Shown here one piece after another: positions 20,676 through 30,797 of a stretch of DNA of 64,000 nucleotides (positions within the stretch are counted from its first letter, which is position 1; every line of letters begins with the position of its first letter). The translations under genes and the position numbers were made by a program. This stretch comes from an uncultured bacterium. Lineage in GTDB: Bacteria; Zixibacteria; MSB-5A5; GN15; FEB-12. The DNA lies in contig CBDVDR010000008.1 of NCBI GenBank assembly GCA_965372795.1, positions 32,001-96,000 of the forward strand, read 5' to 3'. The notes under the pieces are model-generated. The model was not told the origin of the DNA, made no database searches, and saw nothing but the letters and a program-made list of their open reading frames with translations.

Positions 20676-20815
20676 TAACTATATAAAAACCAGAATAAGT
20701 CACAATCAAGTCACATCTGGTGTTCAATTTAGAACTTTTAACCGATATAATCGTTATAATATTATTGGTTGACTTAATGCAATAATTAGACATATTGAGT
20801 TTGAAAGGAATTTTT

Positions 20816-21382
20816 ATGGACTTTACAAGATATCATAGCTTCAAAGATGAACATAAAAAACTCAAAGAGTTGATTCTTTATGTTTCAGATAAATGCTTGC
20901 AGCACAATAAATTTGGTGCAACTAAGTTAAATAAAATACTCTTTTTCTCAGACTTTATCGCTTACCATCAGCGAGGCATATCAATTACAGGAGAAACATA
21001 TTTTAAGTTGGATAATGGTCCTGCACCCAAACATTTACTTCCAGTTAGGGAGGAGCTAAGGCAAGCGAAAGATTTAGAGATTTCCATCAGGAAAACATTT
21101 GCTGGTGATCAATTACGCCCTATTGCATTGAGGCCACCAAATTTGTCTGAGTTTGATGGCGAAGAAATCTCAATAGTTGATGAAGTAATTACTGCACTTA
21201 GAGATAAAAGCTCAGAAGAAGTTAGTGAAATGTCTCATTTATTCCCTGGGTGGATATTGGTAAATACGAAAGAAGACATACCTTATGAAACAGTATATAT
21301 AAATGACCCTTCAAAGATTTTAGTTACTGACCATAATAACAAAAAAGCGCAGGAATTAGCTGAAAAAAATGGTCTCATCTGA
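20816..21382 (+). CDS. Panacea-domain (DUF4065/SocA/GepA) antitoxin
   Basis: KLKELILY, TKLNKILFFSDF, GISITGETY.KL..GPAP, SEMSH...W, IPYE. Confidence 0.88.
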   Translation: MDFTRYHSFKDEHKKLKELILYVSDKCLQHNKFGATKLNKILFFSDFIAYHQRGISITGETYFKLDNGPAPKHLLPVREELRQAKDLEISIRKTFAGDQLRPIALRPPNLSEFDGEEISIVDEVITALRDKSSEEVSEMSHLFPGWILVNTKEDIPYETVYINDPSKILVTDHNNKKAQELAEKNGLI

Positions 21383-21671
21383 ATTTGATCGTACCTCTCG
21401 TTTTGTAGACTTTAATTCTGATGCAAGAGAAGATATTCATGCTATAGAAAGTACTTATCCAGATATCAATAAAGTTCTTATTGGTATTCAAGTATTTTTA
21501 AAAGAAAGTGCTCATAACGGTATCCATTTAAAGCATAATATTTATTTATACACAACTGCAAAAGGTACAACAATCCCTCCTATTGATGTTTATTATACTT
21601 TTGATGAAATCAAAGTTTTTGTGAATTGTTTAGAAGTAAAAAAGGGCTTTACTTACAATAATAATTCTTAA
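21369..21671 (+). CDS. Putative toxin partner of Panacea antitoxin, possibly RelE/ParE-like fold
   Basis: 100 aa, overlaps antitoxin stop; strand-helix-helix start (FVDFNSDAREDI) and C-terminal strands (IDVYYTFDEIKVFV). Confidence 0.6.
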   Translation: MVSSEFDRTSRFVDFNSDAREDIHAIESTYPDINKVLIGIQVFLKESAHNGIHLKHNIYLYTTAKGTTIPPIDVYYTFDEIKVFVNCLEVKKGFTYNNNS

Positions 21672-21753
21672 CAATATTCTTTTTAAATTTTTTAATTAAA
21701 ATTGCCTTGCATCCAAATTCACTCATTTATCGTTGTTGATTGAGATTTCATAA

Positions 21754-21938
21754 CCCTCTATAAAAAGAGGAGCGGTAAATTATGTCCAAAATCGTATGTC
21801 CAATTATCAAAAAATCACACGAATATAAATAACTCAAAAAATTACAAAAACTGTGTTCTTGGCGTCAAAAACATAAAAATGACAAAACGAGCCCATTTTC
21901 ATTGTACAAGACTATAACAGAATAAGTTACAAAGAAAA
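21754..21938 (+). repeat. Right copy of diverged ~180-bp element
   Basis: Blocks CCCTCTATAAAA, TTATGTCCAAAAT, AAACGAGCCCATTT, AGAATAAGTTACAAAGAAAA. Confidence 0.7.
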
Positions 21939-21973
21939 AACACTATTTGAGTAAGTTTCCAATATCAAAACTG

Positions 21974-22392
21974 ATCAGGTCTTCGGAGTAAAAGACCTGA
22001 CGTTAGAGGGATAGATGTGCACAAAAGGCAGGATCGCAGGGATGCTACCCTACTAAACTAATACCTCCCACGAAAATCCAATTGAATAGAAACCCACCCC
22101 AAGGGATGGGCTACCCGATGGCGCCCACAAGCAATGTCAGGAGGACATCCGCCTTGGCGGACTGACCTACTCAAGAATAAATTTAATCGACCGTCCACGA
22201 AAATAATGTTGAATAGAAATTAATTCAAATGAATAGAAACCCACCCCAAAGGGTGGGCTACCCGATGGCGCCCACAAGCAATGTCAGGAGGACACGCCTC
22301 CTGACCTACTCAAGAAAAGACTAAAGGGTTCTGCCCTACTCGAACTATTGGGGCAGACGAGCACACGAAATGTGGTTGACGTCTGCCGCCCA
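21974..22392. repeat. Cluster of REP-like palindromes including a ~90-bp direct duplication (22083-22177 / 22230-22316)
   Basis: Two copies of TGAATAGAAACCCACCCCAA..GGGCTACCCGATGGCGCCCACAAGCAATGTCAGGAGGACA...CTGACCTACTCAAGAA; several other hairpins ending CCTAC. Confidence 0.85.
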
Positions 22393-22407
22393 CATTACGA
22401 AAGTAAA

Positions 22408-23208
22408 TTATTTATTGGCGATGACGAAGACCGAGGATTCGGTGATCGTCAAGCTACCATTACGGCTCGCTAAATGATCAATAATCATCTTTTTGGTTTT
22501 TGTTTTGTTTTTTTCATTTACAAAATGATCGAGATAATTCTCATTCACAATTGCATTGATCCGTTCAACATAACCGATCGGTTTGATCGGTTCGACCGTT
22601 GACAAAGTAAAATTGTTTTCGACTTTGAAACCGGCATTAGCAACCGATTCGCTTAGTTCTGATAAGGTATGAAGTTTTGCACCCATGATTTCAAAAGGTT
22701 CACCATCAGGGAAAAGGCCGGGGTAGTCCTGAGAGATACCGCGAAGGACATTTGAAAATTCCTGATAACAGTCAGTTGAAAGAGCGACAAGCGCCAGTTT
22801 GCCGTTTGGTTTTAGGACCCGATTGACTTCACTTAGGAACTGTTTGCGATCCGGCACCCAGGGGTAGGCGTTTGATGAGACAACAATATCAAACTCGCCG
22901 GCATCCAGATTAAGATCGAGGGCGTTGCCAAGTTTAAAGGTAACATTCGAAAAATTTTCCCGTTCGAGATTTTTTTGCGACAGTTCAACCATGTTGGGCG
23001 ATAGATCAATTCCCAAAAGCGAGCCGCCATCGGTTAGTTCACGGGCGATGTGCATTGATAAAATTCCCGGACCGGAACCGATATCCAAAATTCGTTCGGT
23101 ACCTTTTAAGTTCAGGGCATGGGTTAAAGCTAAAAACTGATTAAAACGGCGAGGTGATACTGTATTAGTATAAGCCTCTGCTACTGGATTAAAACTGGTG
23201 GTTTTCAT
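22408..23208 (-). CDS. Class I SAM-dependent methyltransferase (Methyltransf_11/31-like)
   Basis: ILDIGSGPG, GIDLSPNMV, FDIVVS, RVLKPNG. Confidence 0.9.
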   Translation of the reverse strand: MKTTSFNPVAEAYTNTVSPRRFNQFLALTHALNLKGTERILDIGSGPGILSMHIARELTDGGSLLGIDLSPNMVELSQKNLERENFSNVTFKLGNALDLNLDAGEFDIVVSSNAYPWVPDRKQFLSEVNRVLKPNGKLALVALSTDCYQEFSNVLRGISQDYPGLFPDGEPFEIMGAKLHTLSELSESVANAGFKVENNFTLSTVEPIKPIGYVERINAIVNENYLDHFVNEKNKTKTKKMIIDHLASRNGSLTITESSVFVIANK

Positions 23209-23261
23209 TATGAAACCTCATTTATTAAATTGTTACAAAAATATATTTTTAATATTAAATA

Positions 23262-23284
23262 CAGCGGGACTTTTTGTCCCGCTG
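23262..23284 (-). terminator. Hairpin between CGL and methyltransferase (weak U-tract)
   Basis: CAGCGGGAC/GTCCCGCTG 9-bp stem followed by TATTT. Confidence 0.55.
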
Positions 23285-23333
23285 ATGCAAAGCTAATTAA
23301 TGTAGAAATGTGAAAGACTGTGAGAGGGTGTGC

Positions 23334-24509
23334 TTATTTCACAGCCTTCTTGGTACATCGAAGAGTTTCAAAAGCGGTTCTGAGATCAATAAGCATATCG
23401 TCGATATGCTCAACTCCGACAGAGAGCCGGATTAGACCATCAGTGATTCCGTTTTTTTCACGGATCTCTTTTGGAATAGAAGCATGGGTCATGGAAGCCG
23501 GGTGATTCAACAAAGATTCGACTCCGCCCAAAGATTCAGCCAGAACAAAAACTTCGGTTGCCATTGCAAATGCTTTGACCTGTTCGAAGTCGGCTTTGAT
23601 ATCAAAGGAAACCATCCCGCCCGGCATGGACATTTTGTTCGGCACCGGTTTGCCATCCTGTCCGGGGAAATAGATGCGATCAACCAGATCGACAGTTTCG
23701 AGATATTCAACAACTTTGACAGCGTTGACGCTGTGGCGTTCCATGCGGAGATGCAAAGTTTTCAAACCGCGCAGAACGAGCCATGAATCAAACGGTGCGA
23801 GAATACCGCCAACGGCGTATTGAGCCAGATGGACTTTTTCAGCAAGAGCTTCATCTTTTACAATCAAGCCTCCTCCGATAACATCACAATGTCCACCGAG
23901 ATATTTTGAGAGCGAGTGCATAACTATATCAGCGCCAAGCTCCAAAGGTCTTTGGATGTATGGTGTTGCAAAAGTATTGTCGACCCCGACAAGGATATCT
24001 TTTTCTTTGGCGATTTTGACAACCGCTTCGATATCGGTAATTTTTAAAAGCGGATTGGTCGGAGTTTCAATCCAGAATAGTTTGGTGTTGGGTTTGATTG
24101 CTTTTCTAAAGTTTTCCGCATCTCTGCCATCGACATAGGTAAAGTCGAGATTAAAGTTACGAAGCATCTTTTCAAACATCCGATGAGTTCCGCCGTAAAG
24201 ATCATCAACCGCAACGACATGATCGCCGGCTTTTAGAAGATGCATCACACAATCAAGGGCGGCGAGTCCGGAAGCATAGGCAAAGCCTTTGTGACCGTTC
24301 TCAAGAGTGGCTAAAGCTTCTTCAAGCGCCAACCGCGTTGGATTTAAATAGCGAGAGTAGACATAGCCGGAATCATCACCGGGGTAATCAACCCGATAGG
24401 TAGTGCTTTGGAAGATCGGAGTTGTTACGGCTCCGGTTTCATCCCCTTTTACACTTCCGGAATGTATCGCTTTTGTTTCAAATTTTTTGTTTTTCCAATG
24501 TTCATTCAT
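23334..24509 (-). CDS. Cystathionine gamma-lyase/synthase (Cys/Met metabolism PLP enzyme)
   Basis: YSRYLNPTR, DLYGGT, ETPTNP, DNTFATP, SLSKYLGGHCD, LAESLGGVESL, THAS. Confidence 0.95.
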   Translation of the reverse strand: MNEHWKNKKFETKAIHSGSVKGDETGAVTTPIFQSTTYRVDYPGDDSGYVYSRYLNPTRLALEEALATLENGHKGFAYASGLAALDCVMHLLKAGDHVVAVDDLYGGTHRMFEKMLRNFNLDFTYVDGRDAENFRKAIKPNTKLFWIETPTNPLLKITDIEAVVKIAKEKDILVGVDNTFATPYIQRPLELGADIVMHSLSKYLGGHCDVIGGGLIVKDEALAEKVHLAQYAVGGILAPFDSWLVLRGLKTLHLRMERHSVNAVKVVEYLETVDLVDRIYFPGQDGKPVPNKMSMPGGMVSFDIKADFEQVKAFAMATEVFVLAESLGGVESLLNHPASMTHASIPKEIREKNGITDGLIRLSVGVEHIDDMLIDLRTAFETLRCTKKAVK

Positions 24510-24518
24510 AACAAGCCT

Positions 24519-25526
24519 CTATTTCAAAAAACCTTTTTCGCGCATCCAGTCATCATTAAAAATCTTACTAATATATTTTGGTCCGCCATCCGGCAGAATA
24601 ACTACCATCGTTTTGTCAGCCTCAAGAGTTTTAGCGTGTTCCATCGCAACATGTACAGCCGCACCCGATGAACCGCCGACGAAGATACCTTCTTTGCGGG
24701 TAAGATCGCGAGCTGTTAGAAAACTCTGCTGGTCGGTAACCTGATAGACTTTGTCGATATACTGAAAATCAATTGAGGGACAAAGCATATCTTCACCAAT
24801 ACCTTCAACAAAATAGGTATGGGGTTCGATCATGGTTTTATCTTTATGGTAATTATAATAAACCGATCCGATGGGGTCGACCGCAACTATTTCAATCTGA
24901 GAATTTTGTTCTTTTAGATATTTAGCTGTTCCCGAAACTGTTCCGCCGGTACCGATACCGCCGACTAACACATCAAGCTGACCATTGGTTTGTTTCCAGA
25001 TTTCCGGTCCGGTCAAATTATAGTGGGCTTCAATATTGTTGAGATTAAAATATTGTCCCACAAAGTAGCTTCCCTGGTTTTCCCGCTGCAGTCTTTTTGC
25101 GGTTTCGTAATAACTTTCGGGAGATTCAGCCGGGACCGCGGTCGGGCAGATATGCACCTCGGCACCAAAAGCTTTTAAGGCGTCAACTTTTTCCTGCGAC
25201 ATTTTATCCGGAATGGTTAATATGACTTTATGTCCATTGACCGCCCCAAACATAGCCACCGCTGCTCCGGTGTTGCCGGAAGTTGCCTCGACAATAGTTC
25301 CGCCCGGTTTGAGATCGCCTTTATCAAGCGCCTGTTTTAAAATATAAATAGCCATGCGGTCTTTAATAGAGCCGGTCGGATTCATAAATTCCGGTTTTAC
25401 TAAAATAGTAGCTTTGATGCCCAGTTCGGCAGGCAATTTTTGAAGTTTAATCAGCGGAGTATTGCCGATTACTTCCGTTATGTCGTTTGAATACTTAAAC
25501 TTAGTTTTCAAAATTGTTTCGTTCAC
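24519..25526 (-). CDS. Cystathionine beta-synthase / cysteine synthase family (MccA/CBS-like)
   Basis: GNTPL, NPTGSIKDR, TSGNTG, GIGTGGT, VEGIGED, GGSSG; GTG start with SD AGAGG. Confidence 0.93.
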   Translation of the reverse strand: MNETILKTKFKYSNDITEVIGNTPLIKLQKLPAELGIKATILVKPEFMNPTGSIKDRMAIYILKQALDKGDLKPGGTIVEATSGNTGAAVAMFGAVNGHKVILTIPDKMSQEKVDALKAFGAEVHICPTAVPAESPESYYETAKRLQRENQGSYFVGQYFNLNNIEAHYNLTGPEIWKQTNGQLDVLVGGIGTGGTVSGTAKYLKEQNSQIEIVAVDPIGSVYYNYHKDKTMIEPHTYFVEGIGEDMLCPSIDFQYIDKVYQVTDQQSFLTARDLTRKEGIFVGGSSGAAVHVAMEHAKTLEADKTMVVILPDGGPKYISKIFNDDWMREKGFLK

Positions 25527-25564
25527 TTATAACCTCTTAAAATTTTATATCCTTATAATAAAGC

Positions 25565-25594
25565 AAAAAAAAACCACCTTCAACTAAAAGGTGG
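25565..25594 (-). terminator. Attenuator terminator upstream of CBS
   Basis: CCACCTT-TTAGTTG-AAGGTGG followed by T9, 38 nt before the CBS start. Confidence 0.9.
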
Positions 25595-25625
25595 ACCAAA
25601 ATATACAAAGTTGCTGTTATTCAGA

Positions 25626-25697
25626 CTAAGACATATTTCGATCCTTCTTATTACAACAACAACAGCAGCTAATATGTTTACGAAATAGTTTAATCAT
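25626..25697 (-). CDS. Cysteine-rich attenuator leader peptide (MIKLFRKHISCCCCCNKKDRNMS)
   Basis: Own translation; five consecutive Cys codons at 25653-25667; SD AAAGGA; in-frame GTG at 25700 is an alternative start. Confidence 0.88.
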   Translation of the reverse strand: MIKLFRKHISCCCCCNKKDRNMS

Positions 25698-25719
25698 CAC
25701 AAGTTTTCCTTTGTAGACA

Positions 25720-25747
25720 ATTATAATCTATAAATAGAATTTGTCAA
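25720..25747 (-). promoter_or_regulatory. Consensus sigma70 promoter of the Cys leader/CBS-CGL operon
   Basis: TTGACA-N16-TATAAT. Confidence 0.85.
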
Positions 25748-25914
25748 GATCATAATTTGAACAAAAAATTAATATATTTCAAAAAGTAAAATAATCATTG
25801 ACAACTTTCTTGTGGCTAATTAGAATTATTACAAGCAACCGCGCCCATCTATTTTGTAAGTAGTTGTACAAGTGGCGTTTCTATGACAGAATTCAAATGT
25901 CGGAGATCTTAGGG

Positions 25915-26085
25915 ATGATCTGCACAAATTGCAAAGATGAAATTAAAGGTAATCCAATTAGGCAAGGCGATGAAATCTATTGCTCGTTAGAATGCGCCAA
26001 TAAAACCAGTGGGATGAAGCCTGAGAGTGAAGACTATTTTGAGGAACATGAGCTTGAAGGGCTTTATAACGAGGACGAAGAATAA
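25915..26085 (+). CDS. Small Cys-rich putative metal-binding protein with acidic tail
   Basis: MICTNC...YCSLECA; start ATG 25915 after GGAG; TTGACA-N17-TAGAAT promoter near 25798. Confidence 0.7.
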   Translation: MICTNCKDEIKGNPIRQGDEIYCSLECANKTSGMKPESEDYFEEHELEGLYNEDEE

Positions 26086-26119
26086 CAACTAAGGGTATTA
26101 GTTATAATTCTTACTTAAA

Positions 26120-26602
26120 TTAATCCCGTGATATTTTTATTATTTTATAAGTTACCGATCCGGCGGGAATTTTAATTTTGACAACATCCCCAACTTTTTT
26201 ACCCAATAACGCCAACGCTATCGGTGATTTGACTGATATAATGTCTTTAAAAACATCAGCTTCTCCCGGTGGAGCAACGGTATAGACAATTTCCTCGCCA
26301 TCTTTTTCATCCTTAACAGTAACTTTGGCGTATAGGTAAACTTTGTCTTTTGGTATAGAATCAAGGTCAACCGGTTGTACCCTTGACAGGGTCAGTTCTA
26401 AATCAGCCAGTTTTCTTTCAATGTGCCTTTGAGCCTCTTTGGCAGCATGATATTCAGCATTTTCAGAAAGGTCGCCAAGTTCCATAGCTCTTTTAATCTC
26501 GGCAACAATTTTTGGGCGTTCTTTAAATTTGAGGACTTTAAGTTCATCCTCAAGTTTTTTGATTCCCTCAATTGACATATATATTGGATCACTCATAGTC
26601 AT
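26120..26602 (-). CDS. greA: Transcription elongation factor GreA
   Basis: GDLSENAEYHAAKE, ISVKSPIA.ALLGK. Confidence 0.97.
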   Translation of the reverse strand: MTMSDPIYMSIEGIKKLEDELKVLKFKERPKIVAEIKRAMELGDLSENAEYHAAKEAQRHIERKLADLELTLSRVQPVDLDSIPKDKVYLYAKVTVKDEKDGEEIVYTVAPPGEADVFKDIISVKSPIALALLGKKVGDVVKIKIPAGSVTYKIIKISRD

Positions 26603-26614
26603 TGAATATAAAAC

Positions 26615-28006
26615 TTAATTTGAATTATTGCAAGATGCTATTTTTTTTGAAAACATAAAAAATATAATTAATGATAAAATAAGACCTGGGAAAATCGGTT
26701 CAATATTATAAAAATATTGATCTGATTCTGAGAAATATTTGCTGATATACCAAATAAATGAGACTCCACTGCATAAAACTATTGAAATGAATGCCTGAGC
26801 CGGCGGGATTCTTCTTTTTCCAACAAAAGCAAAAAAGAGGGGCACTAACAATGCCGGAGTTCCGATTGATCCGAAAGCATGCCAAATATCAACCGCTGAT
26901 CTGAAAAACAAGGCGAAAACCACGGCAAGCAGGGTTGAAATAATTAAGCCGAGGTGGATGTATTTAATAATATCTTTTTCATTCGTCTTTTTTAAGCGAG
27001 GCATGATATCGTTGCCAAAGGTTGAAGCGGCTAAAAATGAATAGGAATCTACCGTTGACATAACCGTTGATAACAGTGCCAGAGCAAATAATCCTAATAG
27101 TCCAACCGGGAGAACCAGTTCTGCCAGAGCGGGAAAGGATGCTATCGGATTGGTTAGATCAGGAAGGAGGACACGGGCATACAGCCCGGAAGTCGTTGTC
27201 AGGAAATCAAAGAACGCCCAGCATAAAATTGAAACAAAAATGCCATTTCTGGCAGTATTAGCATTTTTTGCCGCAAAGCATCTTTGGTAAAAAGCCGGTT
27301 CAATCAGAGTTGCCAACGCGATGACATACCAAACGGCAATGTACCAGCCGGAATTACCGCCATGCCAGGTGAGATGTTCCTCGGGCAGGTTTTTTTGTAA
27401 AAAGTCAAACCCGCCATAGTCGACAAAAAGAAAAATGACTAAAATAATAAAACCGAGAAACATCAATCCAAATTGAAAGAGGTCGGTTCGGACAACCGAT
27501 TTGAAACCGCCCATGAAAACATAGATTATTGAAAAAATGGTTCCGATTATTACTCCGACATAAAATGGTAAATTAAAAAGATGTTCGCACAATACTCCCA
27601 GCATCAATATGTATGCCGCCGGCACGGTCATTAAAAAGATAATAATTGATCCTGCCAGGGCAGTTCGGTTATCATAGGTTTGAGCCAGCCGTTGGGGAAT
27701 GGTCAGCAGTTCGGTTTGTCTGACTTTTTTTGATAAGAAAATCGCAAAGAAAAATGCGGCTAAATAATAAGGCAGTCCGAACACCAGCCAGTTTGATAAG
27801 CCATAGAGATAGGTATATTCTCCGACTCCTAAGATTCCCCCGTACCAGGTAGATACTAACGAGGCTACGAAAGCCGGAAGGGTTAACATCCGGCCTCCAA
27901 GAATAATTTCAGATGTGGAGCTGTCTTTTTTTAAGCGAAAATAAAATCCGAAAGCTAACAAAGCTCCCAAATATAGAATAACAATAGCATAATCAACCAG
28001 CTGCAT
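26615..28006 (-). CDS. Sodium:solute symporter family protein, probable thiamine/precursor uptake
   Basis: Polytopic; LGGR.L, STWYGG, GGFKSVVRTD, QRCFAAK, MSTVDS; follows the TPP-controlled TonB receptor. Confidence 0.9.
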   Translation of the reverse strand: MQLVDYAIVILYLGALLAFGFYFRLKKDSSTSEIILGGRMLTLPAFVASLVSTWYGGILGVGEYTYLYGLSNWLVFGLPYYLAAFFFAIFLSKKVRQTELLTIPQRLAQTYDNRTALAGSIIIFLMTVPAAYILMLGVLCEHLFNLPFYVGVIIGTIFSIIYVFMGGFKSVVRTDLFQFGLMFLGFIILVIFLFVDYGGFDFLQKNLPEEHLTWHGGNSGWYIAVWYVIALATLIEPAFYQRCFAAKNANTARNGIFVSILCWAFFDFLTTTSGLYARVLLPDLTNPIASFPALAELVLPVGLLGLFALALLSTVMSTVDSYSFLAASTFGNDIMPRLKKTNEKDIIKYIHLGLIISTLLAVVFALFFRSAVDIWHAFGSIGTPALLVPLFFAFVGKRRIPPAQAFISIVLCSGVSFIWYISKYFSESDQYFYNIEPIFPGLILSLIIFFMFSKKIASCNNSN

Positions 28007-28009
28007 TGA

Positions 28010-30463
28010 TTAAAATAACTCCATTTTAATCTGTCCAAAAATCGAACGTTCAGCCCCAACATAATATTCCGCCCAGCCACCTACAACAATATTAGTGCCG
28101 TCATCATAGGCATAATTTCCGCCATAACCGGAGGTTTCATATTTTTTATCAAACAGATTGTCAACCTTGCCGGTAACGATAAGGTTGCCAATATTTAAAA
28201 AGTGGTCCATGCGATATGAAATTGATAATGATGCCACAGAAAAAGCATCTATAGCCAGATCATCAATATTCCACAACTCAAGATACTGTTGGCCGATAAA
28301 TTTATGCTTATAAGTTATCCGCCATTTATCAATTGTATAATCAGCAATAATATTACCTAACAATTCAGGGAATCCAGCAGCCTTCTTATTGTTAAAGTCA
28401 ACTTCGTATCCATCGAGCAGGGGCAGATAGTTTTTAATCCGATTATAATTGTAAGAGAAATTTCCTGACAGGCTTAAGCCTGTTTGAATCAAGTATGAAA
28501 AATTGCTTTCTATGCCGGCATGAACTGAGCGATCAGCATTGACAGTAATCGCTATGCCATCATCATCAATACCGCCATAAGGAATGATTTCATCCTGAAA
28601 ATCCATCCAGAACAGGCTTACGCCTGCCTGATATTTTTCAGCTCTATAATCTAAACCAAGTTCATAGTCATAGACCCGTTCAGATTTTGCGGTTGGATCA
28701 CCAAATTTATAGATAGTATCACTTCCAACAGTAGTCATACTTTCAACTTCAAGCGACGGCAGAATAAATGGGTCGTTGGCGTCATAGATTGAAGCATCGG
28801 TCGGGGTTCGCGATGAAATCGCAAAGTTGCCATAAAAACTTAACTTGTCCGATATTTTATAGCTGGCACCAATCCTCGGAGAGAAAAATAACCAGTCGAT
28901 ATCATAATCATGTCCGGCAAAGGCGCCAATTTTTGTCTGATCAAATTTGTACCTTTGATAACGCAGTTGGGCGGTGACTTGAGTTGAAAGTTTTTCGGTA
29001 AACCGATATTCTTCCTGGGCAAAAAACGAGCCAACATATTTATCGCCAAAATATTCATAATAACGTGATGGATTTGAAAGAATTGAATTTAAGTATTCGG
29101 CTTGTTTAACCTGTCCCCAATGTTCCGATTCAAAGAAATAGAAAGAACCGCCAATTGTGTGAGTTCCCTTTTCATGTTCAATCACTAAACTGGGGTTCCA
29201 CCCTAATTGATTTTTGCGTACCCATTGCTGGCGGACAAGGTTACCACTTGAGCTGTCACTTGAATTGTTAAGATTATATTCAGAATAATCACGACCGGTT
29301 TTTAACTGTTCGTAGTAGCCTTTACCGCGAATATAGTATAGGGTATTAGACAGAGTTGTTTTATCGTTGATACGATAAATATTATGCAGATGGTAATGGG
29401 GCTGGTTAAAGTTGTCCGTTTCATTTTCATATTCCAAAGGATTTGCCCGGCGATTAAGTTCTATCGCTTCGCGTGAGGAGCCCCAGTAGGAGAGGTGCAT
29501 CCTTATCGGACCGCCGTAGATATACAGTTCGGTGGTCATGTTTGGATCAAGCCGTCCCAGCCCAAAGAAATATGCCCAGCCTTCATACCAGCTGTTTTCA
29601 CGATAGCCACCGGTTTTCTGTTTTGAGAATCGTCCGGTAAACTGCCATTGCCCATCAATCAACCCCGAGGAATATTCAAGGGTATGCTTATAAATATCAC
29701 TGATGACTTTCCCGTCTGATGTATAAACACCAAATCCGGATGATAAGGAAGTAATTTGAGGCTGTGCAAAGATACTGGTGACAACATTTATAGAGCCCCC
29801 AAACGAGGCATCGCCGTAAAGTGAATTGCCTACTCCACGCTGAATTTGAATATCAGTTATATTTGAGGCAAAATCGGGTAGATCGACAAAATAGGTTGCC
29901 TGATCTTCGGGATCATTTAACGGTACTCCATTAATATAAGTTGAGATACGTTTGTCATCAAACCCTCTGATTTTCATATAGCTGTATCCAAGCGGTGAAC
30001 CGGCATCGGAAAAAGCATGAAGATTTGGAGTTGATTCAAGCAGTAATGGAAATTCGCCCACAGTATAATCGCGTTTGATTTCTTCTTTTGAAAAATTGTC
30101 AAAAGCAATTGGTGAAACACCAAGTTTGGCTCGGTTAGCAGTAACGATTATATCATCACTTCGTAAAAACATTTTTTTCAAAGTAATTTCAGGGGTTAAG
30201 TCCGATGCCTTAAATTTAATCGGGTAATATCCTACCGACGAAAAAGTCACATGGGTTATTCCTTTCATATCCGGCAGTTTAAAAACACCCATATCATTTG
30301 TTATTGTTCCAACCGCTTTCAAGTTGGTGATAACAGAAACCCCCAATAAGGGTTCTTTGTCAGAATTTGTTACTTTGCCGTTGATTTCATCGGCATTGAC
30401 CGAAGAAATCGTGAGCAAAAGGAATAGTAGTAACCCTGAAAAGTTTTTTGTGATTGTTCTCAT
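28010..30463 (-). CDS. TonB-dependent receptor, probable thiamine uptake
   Basis: Signal peptide, N-terminal CarboxypepD-like domain, IIVTA, IRGFD, INGVPLNDPE, QIQRGVG, C-terminal F; start moved to ATG 30463. Confidence 0.92.
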   Translation of the reverse strand: MRTITKNFSGLLLFLLLTISSVNADEINGKVTNSDKEPLLGVSVITNLKAVGTITNDMGVFKLPDMKGITHVTFSSVGYYPIKFKASDLTPEITLKKMFLRSDDIIVTANRAKLGVSPIAFDNFSKEEIKRDYTVGEFPLLLESTPNLHAFSDAGSPLGYSYMKIRGFDDKRISTYINGVPLNDPEDQATYFVDLPDFASNITDIQIQRGVGNSLYGDASFGGSINVVTSIFAQPQITSLSSGFGVYTSDGKVISDIYKHTLEYSSGLIDGQWQFTGRFSKQKTGGYRENSWYEGWAYFFGLGRLDPNMTTELYIYGGPIRMHLSYWGSSREAIELNRRANPLEYENETDNFNQPHYHLHNIYRINDKTTLSNTLYYIRGKGYYEQLKTGRDYSEYNLNNSSDSSSGNLVRQQWVRKNQLGWNPSLVIEHEKGTHTIGGSFYFFESEHWGQVKQAEYLNSILSNPSRYYEYFGDKYVGSFFAQEEYRFTEKLSTQVTAQLRYQRYKFDQTKIGAFAGHDYDIDWLFFSPRIGASYKISDKLSFYGNFAISSRTPTDASIYDANDPFILPSLEVESMTTVGSDTIYKFGDPTAKSERVYDYELGLDYRAEKYQAGVSLFWMDFQDEIIPYGGIDDDGIAITVNADRSVHAGIESNFSYLIQTGLSLSGNFSYNYNRIKNYLPLLDGYEVDFNNKKAAGFPELLGNIIADYTIDKWRITYKHKFIGQQYLELWNIDDLAIDAFSVASLSISYRMDHFLNIGNLIVTGKVDNLFDKKYETSGYGGNYAYDDGTNIVVGGWAEYYVGAERSIFGQIKMELF

Positions 30464-30500
30464 GACAGAAACCTCATTAAAAAAATTGTGAGATTCCGTC
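30464..30500 (-). promoter_or_regulatory. RBS-sequestering hairpin (expression platform of TPP riboswitch)
   Basis: GACGGAATCTCA pairs with TGAGGTTTCTGTC, which contains the SD directly before ATG. Confidence 0.65.
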
Positions 30501-30542
30501 CTGTTCGAAAGGAAGCCAAAAGGCTGGGGATGTAAATACATC

Positions 30543-30625
30543 TCCGTTTCCCTACGCCGGTATTATCCGGATCAGGTTTAGGGGTTATGATCTCAGGCGG
30601 ACATTTACGCCACCCCCAACGGAAT
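30543..30625 (-). ncRNA. TPP riboswitch aptamer
   Basis: GGGG...CTGAGA...ACCC..AACCTGATCCGGATAATACCGGCGTAGGGAA; P1 TCCGTT/AACGGA. Confidence 0.96.
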
Positions 30626-30797
30626 TATTATCTTCTCATATAATAAATACGAAGCTATTCATTGGCGCAAGCTCTAATTATCAAACGGGATCAAGCAGAT
30701 AACATGTAAGTTTAATTTATCTAATGGTTTAAATTGGTTGACTTTATTTTCATAAAACATCAAATTCTTTTTCGTTGGGACATTTATTGGAGGATTA

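Follow-up and report, generated by a model that had tools for sequence, protein, structure and literature searches.

Predicted ribosome-mediated cysteine attenuation ahead of a reverse-transsulfuration operon in an uncultured bacterium

The DNA analyzed here is a stretch of 64,000 nucleotides from the genome of an uncultured bacterium (contig CBDVDR010000008.1, positions 32,001 to 96,000; this whole stretch is called the window in the following). On its minus strand, directly ahead of the gene of a cystathionine beta-synthase (CBS)-type enzyme, lies a compact leader that contains a promoter, a small open reading frame (sORF) with tandem Cys codons, a long-range RNA helix and an intrinsic terminator (see Table 1). 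Very probably, this leader attenuates transcription with the ribosome as mediator: it would sense charged tRNA-Cys and thereby control an operon for reverse transsulfuration, the conversion of methionine/homocysteine to cysteine. The same arrangement was found in 23 distinct leader sequences, and each of them is positioned directly upstream, on the same strand, of one of three pathway genes (CBS-type, cystathionine gamma-lyase (CGL)-type or methyltransferase).

Leader anatomy and conservation of the cysteine-codon reading frame

The coordinates assigned to the element in a first-pass annotation of the window (promoter, Shine-Dalgarno (SD) site, 23-codon sORF, Cys run, helix, terminator and T9) were checked base by base and are exact. 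In a pattern scan of 21500-26700 the hexamer pair 25747-25720 was the sole 12/12 sigma-70 promoter match; based on the promoter spacing, transcription would start at approximately 25712-25714, i.e. about 12-14 nt ahead of the leader ORF. The encoded peptide is M(M)IKLFRKHISCCCCCNKKDRNMS, with 24 codons if read from GTG 25700 and 23 codons if read from ATG 25697; the frame is closed by a TAG stop codon (25628-25626, minus strand), and its final eight codons hold the 5' arm of the putative antiterminator. At the DNA level, GGATCGAAATATG (25644-25632) is complementary to TATATTTTGGTCC (25605-25593) and yields a 13-bp helix with three G-U pairs; the terminator reads CCACCTTT-TAGTT-GAAGGTGG (25594-25574) and is also present in the list of the pattern scan. 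Additionally, AATAACAGCA (25621-25612) is complementary over 10 bp to TGCTGTTGTT of the Cys run, and part of this segment also makes a small CUG/CAG hairpin inside the antiterminator loop. The end of the T9 tract is separated by 38 nt from the GTG start (25526) of the CBS-type gene, whose own SD site (AAGAGG, 25538-25533, minus strand) is located outside every conserved helix. The 156-nt leader as a whole folds with -37.0 kcal/mol (z = -2.70); one of 200 dinucleotide shuffles folds as well.

Within the genome to which the window belongs (3.35 Mb), 26 runs of at least four TGY codons are present; the five other runs that were examined are antisense within long ORFs. Outside of long ORFs, 21 Cys-rich sORFs are followed by a T-run, and that of the window alone has the full design. 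Among the 30 best CBS-orthologue loci of relatives, eight carry a short ORF with at least three consecutive Cys codons directly upstream; a ninth locus (L019) was dropped, its Cys run being situated inside a long upstream reading frame (stop-to-stop). Three further distinct leaders were obtained from public contigs, and eight of the leaders collected up to this point were used to build a covariance model (R1). The pooled data set comprises 26 matches and 23 distinct sequences, one per genome (32-55% G+C; Ignavibacteriales-type genomes), and is the basis of all family-wide counts given below.

The pooled leaders contain three to six Cys codons each. As a TGY run can also be read as Val/Ala or Leu, the frames were compared for an in-frame ATG upstream of the run that is not followed by an intervening stop codon: such a start was found in the Cys frame of 22 of the 23 leaders and in no leader in either of the other frames; the remaining leader has GTG/TTG starts in the Cys frame. 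A promoter of the form TTGACN-N15-19-TANNNT precedes the Cys run in 23/23 leaders, and the stop codon of the sORF follows 21-36 nt past the final Cys codon. Because the ATG frame and the stop position are kept across sequences of 32-55% G+C, the sORF is not regarded as incidental to the RNA. In the peptides themselves, conservation is confined to the Cys run and the dipeptide [GD]-R, the latter encoded by the helix arm GGNYCGA; their N-termini vary in length and sequence. Before the stop codon, Pro is the last residue in 11 and Gly in four of the 23 peptides. The Pro endings may be a by-product of the RNA helix (AUGCCN pairing with GGC); they may also represent a selected slow-release end that holds the ribosome on the antiterminator arm, a C-terminal Pro being known to slow peptide release.

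Long-range helix, terminator and predicted effect of ribosome position

When the part of each RNA that begins behind the last Cys codon and closes with the terminator 5' arm was folded, a long-range helix between the 3' end of the ORF and the 5' flank of the terminator was formed in 23/23 leaders. The 5' arm of this antiterminator begins 1-16 nt past the last Cys codon, and its 3' boundary varies from 6 nt upstream of the stop codon to 3 nt beyond the first base of that codon; 2-9 nt (median 4) of the terminator 5' arm are sequestered by the helix. In the pre-terminator fold of the window, AAG (25649-25647) also pairs with CUU (25590-25588), and five of the eight nucleotides of the terminator 5' arm are sequestered. 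A terminator hairpin followed by a T-run of at least five nucleotides (tract U6-U9) is present downstream of the sORF in all 23 leaders.

The helix arms diverge between the leaders while their pairing is kept (GGAUCGAAAUAUG, GGGCCGAA, GACCGGGAG, GGCCGCG, and GAGGU..GGC with GCCACCUC). In the model-fitted alignment A3, 86% of the cells pair, compared with 28-55% in slid registers; changes on both sides have occurred in 10 of the 13 modelled pairs, and with 500 shuffles the observed value was not attained for a single one of the five measures. The motif YCGGUCCACC is conserved beyond what pairing requires, its junction columns being identical in 22 of the 23 leaders. Such surplus conservation would be expected of a cis-acting RNA switch that responds to a protein, a tRNA or a small ligand (T-box-, CymR- or riboswitch-like) and to which the short ORF is incidental; moreover, the clostridial ubiG-mccBA operon of similar gene content is preceded by a Cys-specific T-box (PMC2566862). 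However, this explanation is very improbable in view of the ATG in the Cys frame (22/23 versus 0/23) and of a stop codon that is always placed at the antiterminator 5' arm, and the leader has no match at E <= 10 to any family of Rfam, which includes the T-box. Within 24500-27000, the same search at E <= 10 gave a chance snoRNA match only (E = 8.5), and neither a T-box RNA model nor a S-adenosylmethionine (SAM) riboswitch was detected in the whole window at gathering scores.

The first-pass annotation had also noted pairing of the Cys codons with 25621-25612 and had assigned the geometry of the trp, his and thr attenuators to the leader. In the window the former duplex is indeed strong (-13.8 kcal/mol; z = -3.24 versus shuffled spacers), but across the family it is significant (z < -1.64) in six of the 23 leaders only (mean z = -1.03), and a role as a family-wide protector hairpin is therefore not supported. 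Of the trp-like geometry, the sORF, the Cys codons, the predicted antiterminator and the terminator are present, whereas the complete four-segment layout of trp does not appear to be a family-wide feature.

To model how the position of the ribosome would affect the attenuator, base-pair probabilities were calculated for each leader RNA truncated directly behind the terminator 3' arm. A 27-nt footprint, which starts 15 nt ahead of the A-site codon and reaches 11 nt past the first base of this codon, was made unpairable, and the probability of the three bottom pairs of the terminator served as readout. The predicted median terminator probability of the 23 leaders is 0.11 without ribosome and 0.05 if the first Cys codon occupies the A site; it amounts to 0.14 for the last Cys codon in the A site and to 0.82 for the stop codon in this position; the corresponding values of the window are 0.55, 0.04, 0.12 and 0.96. 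If the segment between Cys run and terminator was shuffled (30 mononucleotide shuffles per leader), the median of the per-leader means in the stalled state was 0.71 versus 0.05 observed. The earlier proposal that stalling on the Cys codons would free the antiterminator and induce the conversion of homocysteine to cysteine is thus supported by the comparative geometry, the compensatory changes and the predicted footprint folds, including those of the window itself.

According to the model, transcription would begin about 12-14 nt before the leader ORF, and a ribosome would translate this ORF while RNA polymerase heads to the terminator. With ample Cys-tRNA, the ribosome would reach the stop codon at 25628-25626 and cover GGAUCGAAAUAUG; UAUAUUUUGGUCC would remain free, the hairpin CCACCUUU/GAAGGUGG with its U9 tract would be completed, and the transcript would end before the CBS-type gene. 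With scarce Cys-tRNA, the ribosome would halt at the run of five Cys codons, with 8-20 nt left to the antiterminator 5' arm; the freed arm would pair with UAUAUUUUGGUCC (and AAG with CUU) and would take the bottom pairs of the terminator beside the U-tract. As a result of such antitermination, the polymerase would enter the CBS-type, the CGL-type and probably the methyltransferase gene, so that their expression would respond to the cysteine supply.

Several observations weigh against this attenuation model. The covariation count is based on a model-fitted alignment and is biased towards the model; RNAalifold on the unfitted MAFFT alignment of the 23 leaders recovered five terminator pairs and no antiterminator, a poor recovery attributed to the misalignment of the divergent 5' arms by MAFFT. 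In the window, the 13-bp antiterminator described by the first-pass annotation as overlapping the base of the terminator stem is present, but it shares just two nucleotides with the terminator (CC, 25594-25593), so that mutual exclusion is weak; moreover, if the whole leader is folded at equilibrium, the helix occurs side by side with a terminator of 6 bp. Given the short overlap and the coexistence at equilibrium, the switch would depend on the bottom pairs of the terminator and on the order of folding; in other antiterminators, few shared bases can suffice. Four of the 23 leaders (L116, L126, L127, L128) show no drop of the terminator probability with the footprint at the first Cys codon (0.67-0.87), and three (L119, L124, L004) do not exceed 0.32 even if the ribosome is placed at the stop codon. 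The median without ribosome is just 0.11: as a conserved protector hairpin is not apparent, an untranslated leader is predicted to read through, unlike that of a trp attenuator. Finally, the distribution is patchy, with a leader at only eight of the 30 best CBS-orthologue loci.

The predicted read-through of the untranslated leader might suggest a distinct two-helix attenuator without protector hairpin, which would be ON by default as long as it is not translated and in which the ribosome at the stop codon would act as a clamp that enables the terminator, possibly prolonged by the Pro-stop ending; this variant is proposed tentatively and is rather unlikely.

It might also be argued that the Cys-codon sORF acts via translation or Rho-dependent polarity as in mycobacteria, and that the hairpin and the U-tract are not the regulated step. 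Indeed, the polycysteine sORF that has been studied, Ms5788A, controls SD availability, and transcription beyond it is cysteine-insensitive according to bioRxiv 10.1101/834739. For the present leaders this is highly unlikely: each of the 23 has, past the sORF, a canonical hairpin with a tract of U6-U9, and in the window about 38 nt separate the end of the terminator from the CBS start codon, with the CBS SD site (25538-25533) outside the conserved helices. That the sORF encodes a functional small Cys-rich peptide (e.g. metal- or redox-active) from a unit that regulates nothing downstream is hardly credible, for although a Cys run could bind metals and the element has its own promoter and terminator, nothing beyond the run is conserved except the helix-encoded [GD]-R dipeptide, the N-termini differ, and the element is always found directly upstream, on the same strand, of one of three pathway genes. 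Transcription attenuation by a ribosome that reads the Cys codons is thus the preferred explanation.

Downstream genes, distribution of the leader and other features of the window

The coordinates of the leader elements and of the three downstream genes are compiled in Table 1.

Table 1. Features of the cysteine leader and of the genes downstream of it (positions within the window).
Feature	Positions	Strand	Basis or remark
-35 hexamer TTGACA	25742..25747	-	read from sequence
-10 hexamer TATAAT	25720..25725	-	16-nt spacer to -35
SD-like site of leader ORF, AAAGGAAAA	25704..25712	-	sequence
Leader ORF V/M-MIKLFRKHISCCCCCNKKDRNMS, stop codon included	25626..25700	-	sequence and ORF list, same limits
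Five tandem Cys codons TGC TGT TGT TGT TGT, proposed sensing site	25653..25667	-	sequence
Antiterminator 5' arm, GGAUCGAAAUAUG (25644-25632) plus AAG (25649-25647)	25632..25649	-	folding, covariation
Segment AAUAACAGCA, complementary to Cys-codon run (10 bp)	25612..25621	-	sequence
Antiterminator 3' arm, UAUAUUUUGGUCC	25593..25605	-	sequence, folding
Terminator hairpin CCACCUUU-UAGUU-GAAGGUGG, 8 bp, -10.4 kcal/mol	25574..25594	-	folding, pattern scan
U9 tract of terminator (T9 in DNA)	25565..25573	-	sequence, pattern scan
First gene: pyridoxal phosphate (PLP)-dependent CBS-type enzyme (MccA/CBS-like), 335 aa, catalytic core only	24519..25526	-	PF00291, 2.3e-80
Second gene: Cys/Met-metabolism PLP enzyme (Cys_Met_Meta_PP), CGL type (MccB-like), 391 aa	23334..24509	-	PF01053, 1.2e-142
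Third gene: class I SAM-dependent methyltransferase (UbiE/UbiG-like), 266 aa	22408..23208	-	profile match

The best NCBIfam model of the CBS-type protein is TIGR01137, with 393 bits (positions 3-322 of 457) below the cut-off of 510, as only the catalytic core is present. Its nearest PDB chains mostly carry the name cystathionine beta-synthase (259-301 bits; cysteine synthases reach no more than 217 bits), the top chain 9k2p_A bearing a generic PLP-protein name only; its nearest public relatives (70-79% identity) are mostly metagenome-assembled genomes (MAGs) labelled "uncultured Ignavibacteriales", with few other labels. For the CGL-type protein, the best NCBIfam match (NF005810) is likewise under its cut-off; among PDB chains, it is closest to those of cystathionine gamma-lyases, gamma-synthases and a beta-lyase. 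Between the CGL-type and the methyltransferase gene a gap of 125 nt is found. It harbors a 9-bp G+C-rich hairpin with a weak T-tail (CAGCGGGAC-AAAAA-GTCCCGCUG, 23262-23284, minus strand), which might act in partial termination or mark a processing site; because of this gap and the poor T-tail of its hairpin, co-transcription of the methyltransferase gene with the CBS- and CGL-type genes is uncertain. Upstream of the leader, greA is located on the same strand.

The genome of the window further contains ahcY (S-adenosylhomocysteine (SAH) hydrolase, SAH to homocysteine; above the model cut-off). With ahcY and the CBS- and CGL-type genes encoded, the route from SAM via SAH, homocysteine and cystathionine to cysteine would be complete on paper. 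A cysE gene adjoins a cysK-like gene, and the sulfide-dependent route to cysteine thus appears to be encoded as well, as judged from gene content.

In this genome, model R1 yielded one strong match and three weak ones (E = 0.2-0.7), of which C5:8805-8885 was rejected as antisense within a long ORF; neither the R1 search nor a scan for intergenic Cys-rich sORFs revealed a second convincing Cys leader in this genome. Across the order, R1 matched one copy each in 21 of 151 genomes including that of the window; without the latter, the tallies are 15/98 for family f1, 5/33 for f4, 0/5 for f2 and 0/14 for f3. In the class sample, to which stricter filters were applied, matches were obtained in five of 151 genomes, all of them f1, and in none of the 18 other families sampled. 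These genome-scale counts are lower bounds, as the divergent leaders L004 and L021 score at locus scale only.

A CBS orthologue follows 37-71 nt downstream in 21 of the 23 leaders; poly-Cys sORFs and covarying helices ahead of CBS orthologues, which the first-pass annotation had suggested looking for, do thus exist in relatives. The two others stand directly before orthologues of the second and third genes of the window: L125 precedes a methyltransferase orthologue (55% identity to that of the window), and L126 precedes a CGL-type orthologue (72% identity) and, like the leader of the window, has greA upstream of it. At the latter locus (G141:C162, 638-2872), the layout is greA, leader and CGL-type gene, and a CBS-type gene in between is not present; the unit seems to have lost its first gene there or to carry it elsewhere. 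Judged from these arrangements, the leader would behave as a portable cassette, as it is placed directly before one or another of the three pathway genes depending on the genome, and that it travels with all three is the best evidence that the CBS-type, CGL-type and methyltransferase genes may constitute one functional unit.

Twenty CBS loci without a usable poly-Cys leader were searched against Rfam and gave no match at gathering scores. Two CBS orthologues without poly-Cys leader (L007 and L038) share another conserved leader about 120-230 nt before their start, with a promoter-like CCCTTGACTTT..GATAGTACCAT followed by ACATTG.C..AACGC...TGGA.TAA.CTGTTGTGGT; it may be another regulatory element for the same gene, and a search with the L007 sequence matched no Rfam family.

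Elsewhere in the window, a thiamine pyrophosphate (TPP) riboswitch (RF00059, 72.7 bits, 30532-30627, minus strand) is the sole Rfam match at gathering scores. It is located directly before the gene of a TonB-dependent receptor (28010-30541, minus strand; Plug and beta-barrel, 843 aa), which is followed by a gene of the sodium:solute symporter family (26615-28006, minus strand); riboswitch, receptor and symporter are probably an operon for the uptake of thiamine or a thiamine precursor. An ORF on the plus strand (20795-21382) carries a SocA/Panacea antitoxin-like domain (PF13274, 9.6e-15) and is followed by an overlapping 100-aa ORF without Pfam match; both may represent a toxin-antitoxin pair.

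Comparison with known attenuators and cysteine-responsive leaders

No literature on Cys leader-peptide attenuators in Ignavibacteria was found, nor any on a Cys leader in Bacteroidetes, although the supplement of PMC9723704 may list leaders; the passages concerned of this study mention attenuation by leader peptides ahead of the amino-acid operons of a flavobacterium, and they do not name cysteine. For published polycysteine attenuation with a terminator, the matching literature concerned mycobacteria only, and in 2020 attenuation for cysteine mediated by upstream ORFs (uORFs) was undescribed to the knowledge of the authors of bioRxiv 10.1101/834739. The first-pass annotation had likewise known of no Cys attenuator with an intrinsic terminator in this lineage; this holds for the present lineage and operon, but an intrinsic-terminator Cys uORF has been predicted for cysS of Rhodobacterales (PMC8632094).

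This predicted attenuator, the uORFC-8-2 motif, contains conserved Cys codons and a U-run that is consistent with an intrinsic terminator (PMC8632094). It differs from the leader described here in having two Cys codons inside its first stem and in regulating cysteinyl-tRNA synthetase in Alphaproteobacteria (PMC8632094), whereas the present leaders have three to six Cys codons upstream of the helix and precede CBS-type, CGL-type or methyltransferase genes in Ignavibacteriales; the two are set apart by description, and no family of Rfam 15 matches the leader.

Poly-Cys uORFs in Actinobacteria, which the first-pass annotation had mentioned as known, are indeed in print (PMC1262725; bioRxiv 10.1101/834739): poly-Cys leader ORFs without terminators were predicted for the cys operons of Mycobacterium and Propionibacterium and for cbs of Bifidobacterium longum (PMC1262725), and a polycysteine ORF of M. 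smegmatis was shown to act translationally (bioRxiv 10.1101/834739). Common to these ORFs and the present leader is a Cys run in an upstream ORF that senses, or in our case would sense, the cysteine supply, with cbs among the targets. However, the actinobacterial ORFs, as described, have no obvious terminator, are leaderless and act by SD sequestration and polarity (PMC1262725; bioRxiv 10.1101/834739), in contrast to the SD site, the short 5' untranslated region (UTR) and the canonical terminator/antiterminator pair of the present leader. A leaderless, SD-sequestering attenuator of the mycobacterial type was consequently rejected for the window, where the sORF has an SD site and a 5' UTR, the CBS SD site is outside the helices and the terminator is canonical.

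The ubiG-mccB-mccA operon of Clostridium acetobutylicum, which is controlled by a Cys-specific T-box and by S-box antisense control (PMC2566862), shares with the window methyltransferase, MccB-type and MccA-type genes (gene sets likened by type) and an antitermination leader that reads, or in the window would read, the status of tRNA-Cys. The sensor of the clostridial operon is an RNA that binds uncharged tRNA, whereas that proposed for the window is the translating ribosome. As the leader links the three genes, the parallel to the clostridial operon supports, by analogy, a role of the methyltransferase in the conversion of methionine to cysteine; the CBS-type, CGL-type and SAM methyltransferase genes would thereby be connected as one regulatory unit. 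With its promoter consensus, SD-led sORF and intrinsic terminator, the leader provides a candidate for a conserved terminator-based Cys sensor in the little-studied Ignavibacteriales, and it could be included in RNA-family catalogues to improve the annotation of MAGs.

The mechanism itself is a textbook one, and the surprise to a specialist should be moderate: the leader is a family-level addition to a known type of switch and not a new mechanism. The classical mode of attenuation is well established for the trp, his, leu, thr, ilv and phe systems. [quoted passage not shown] It differs from this type in that cysteine would be sensed, that a conserved 1:2 protector/pause hairpin is not apparent, and that the antiterminator shares 2-9 nt with the terminator instead of a whole arm.

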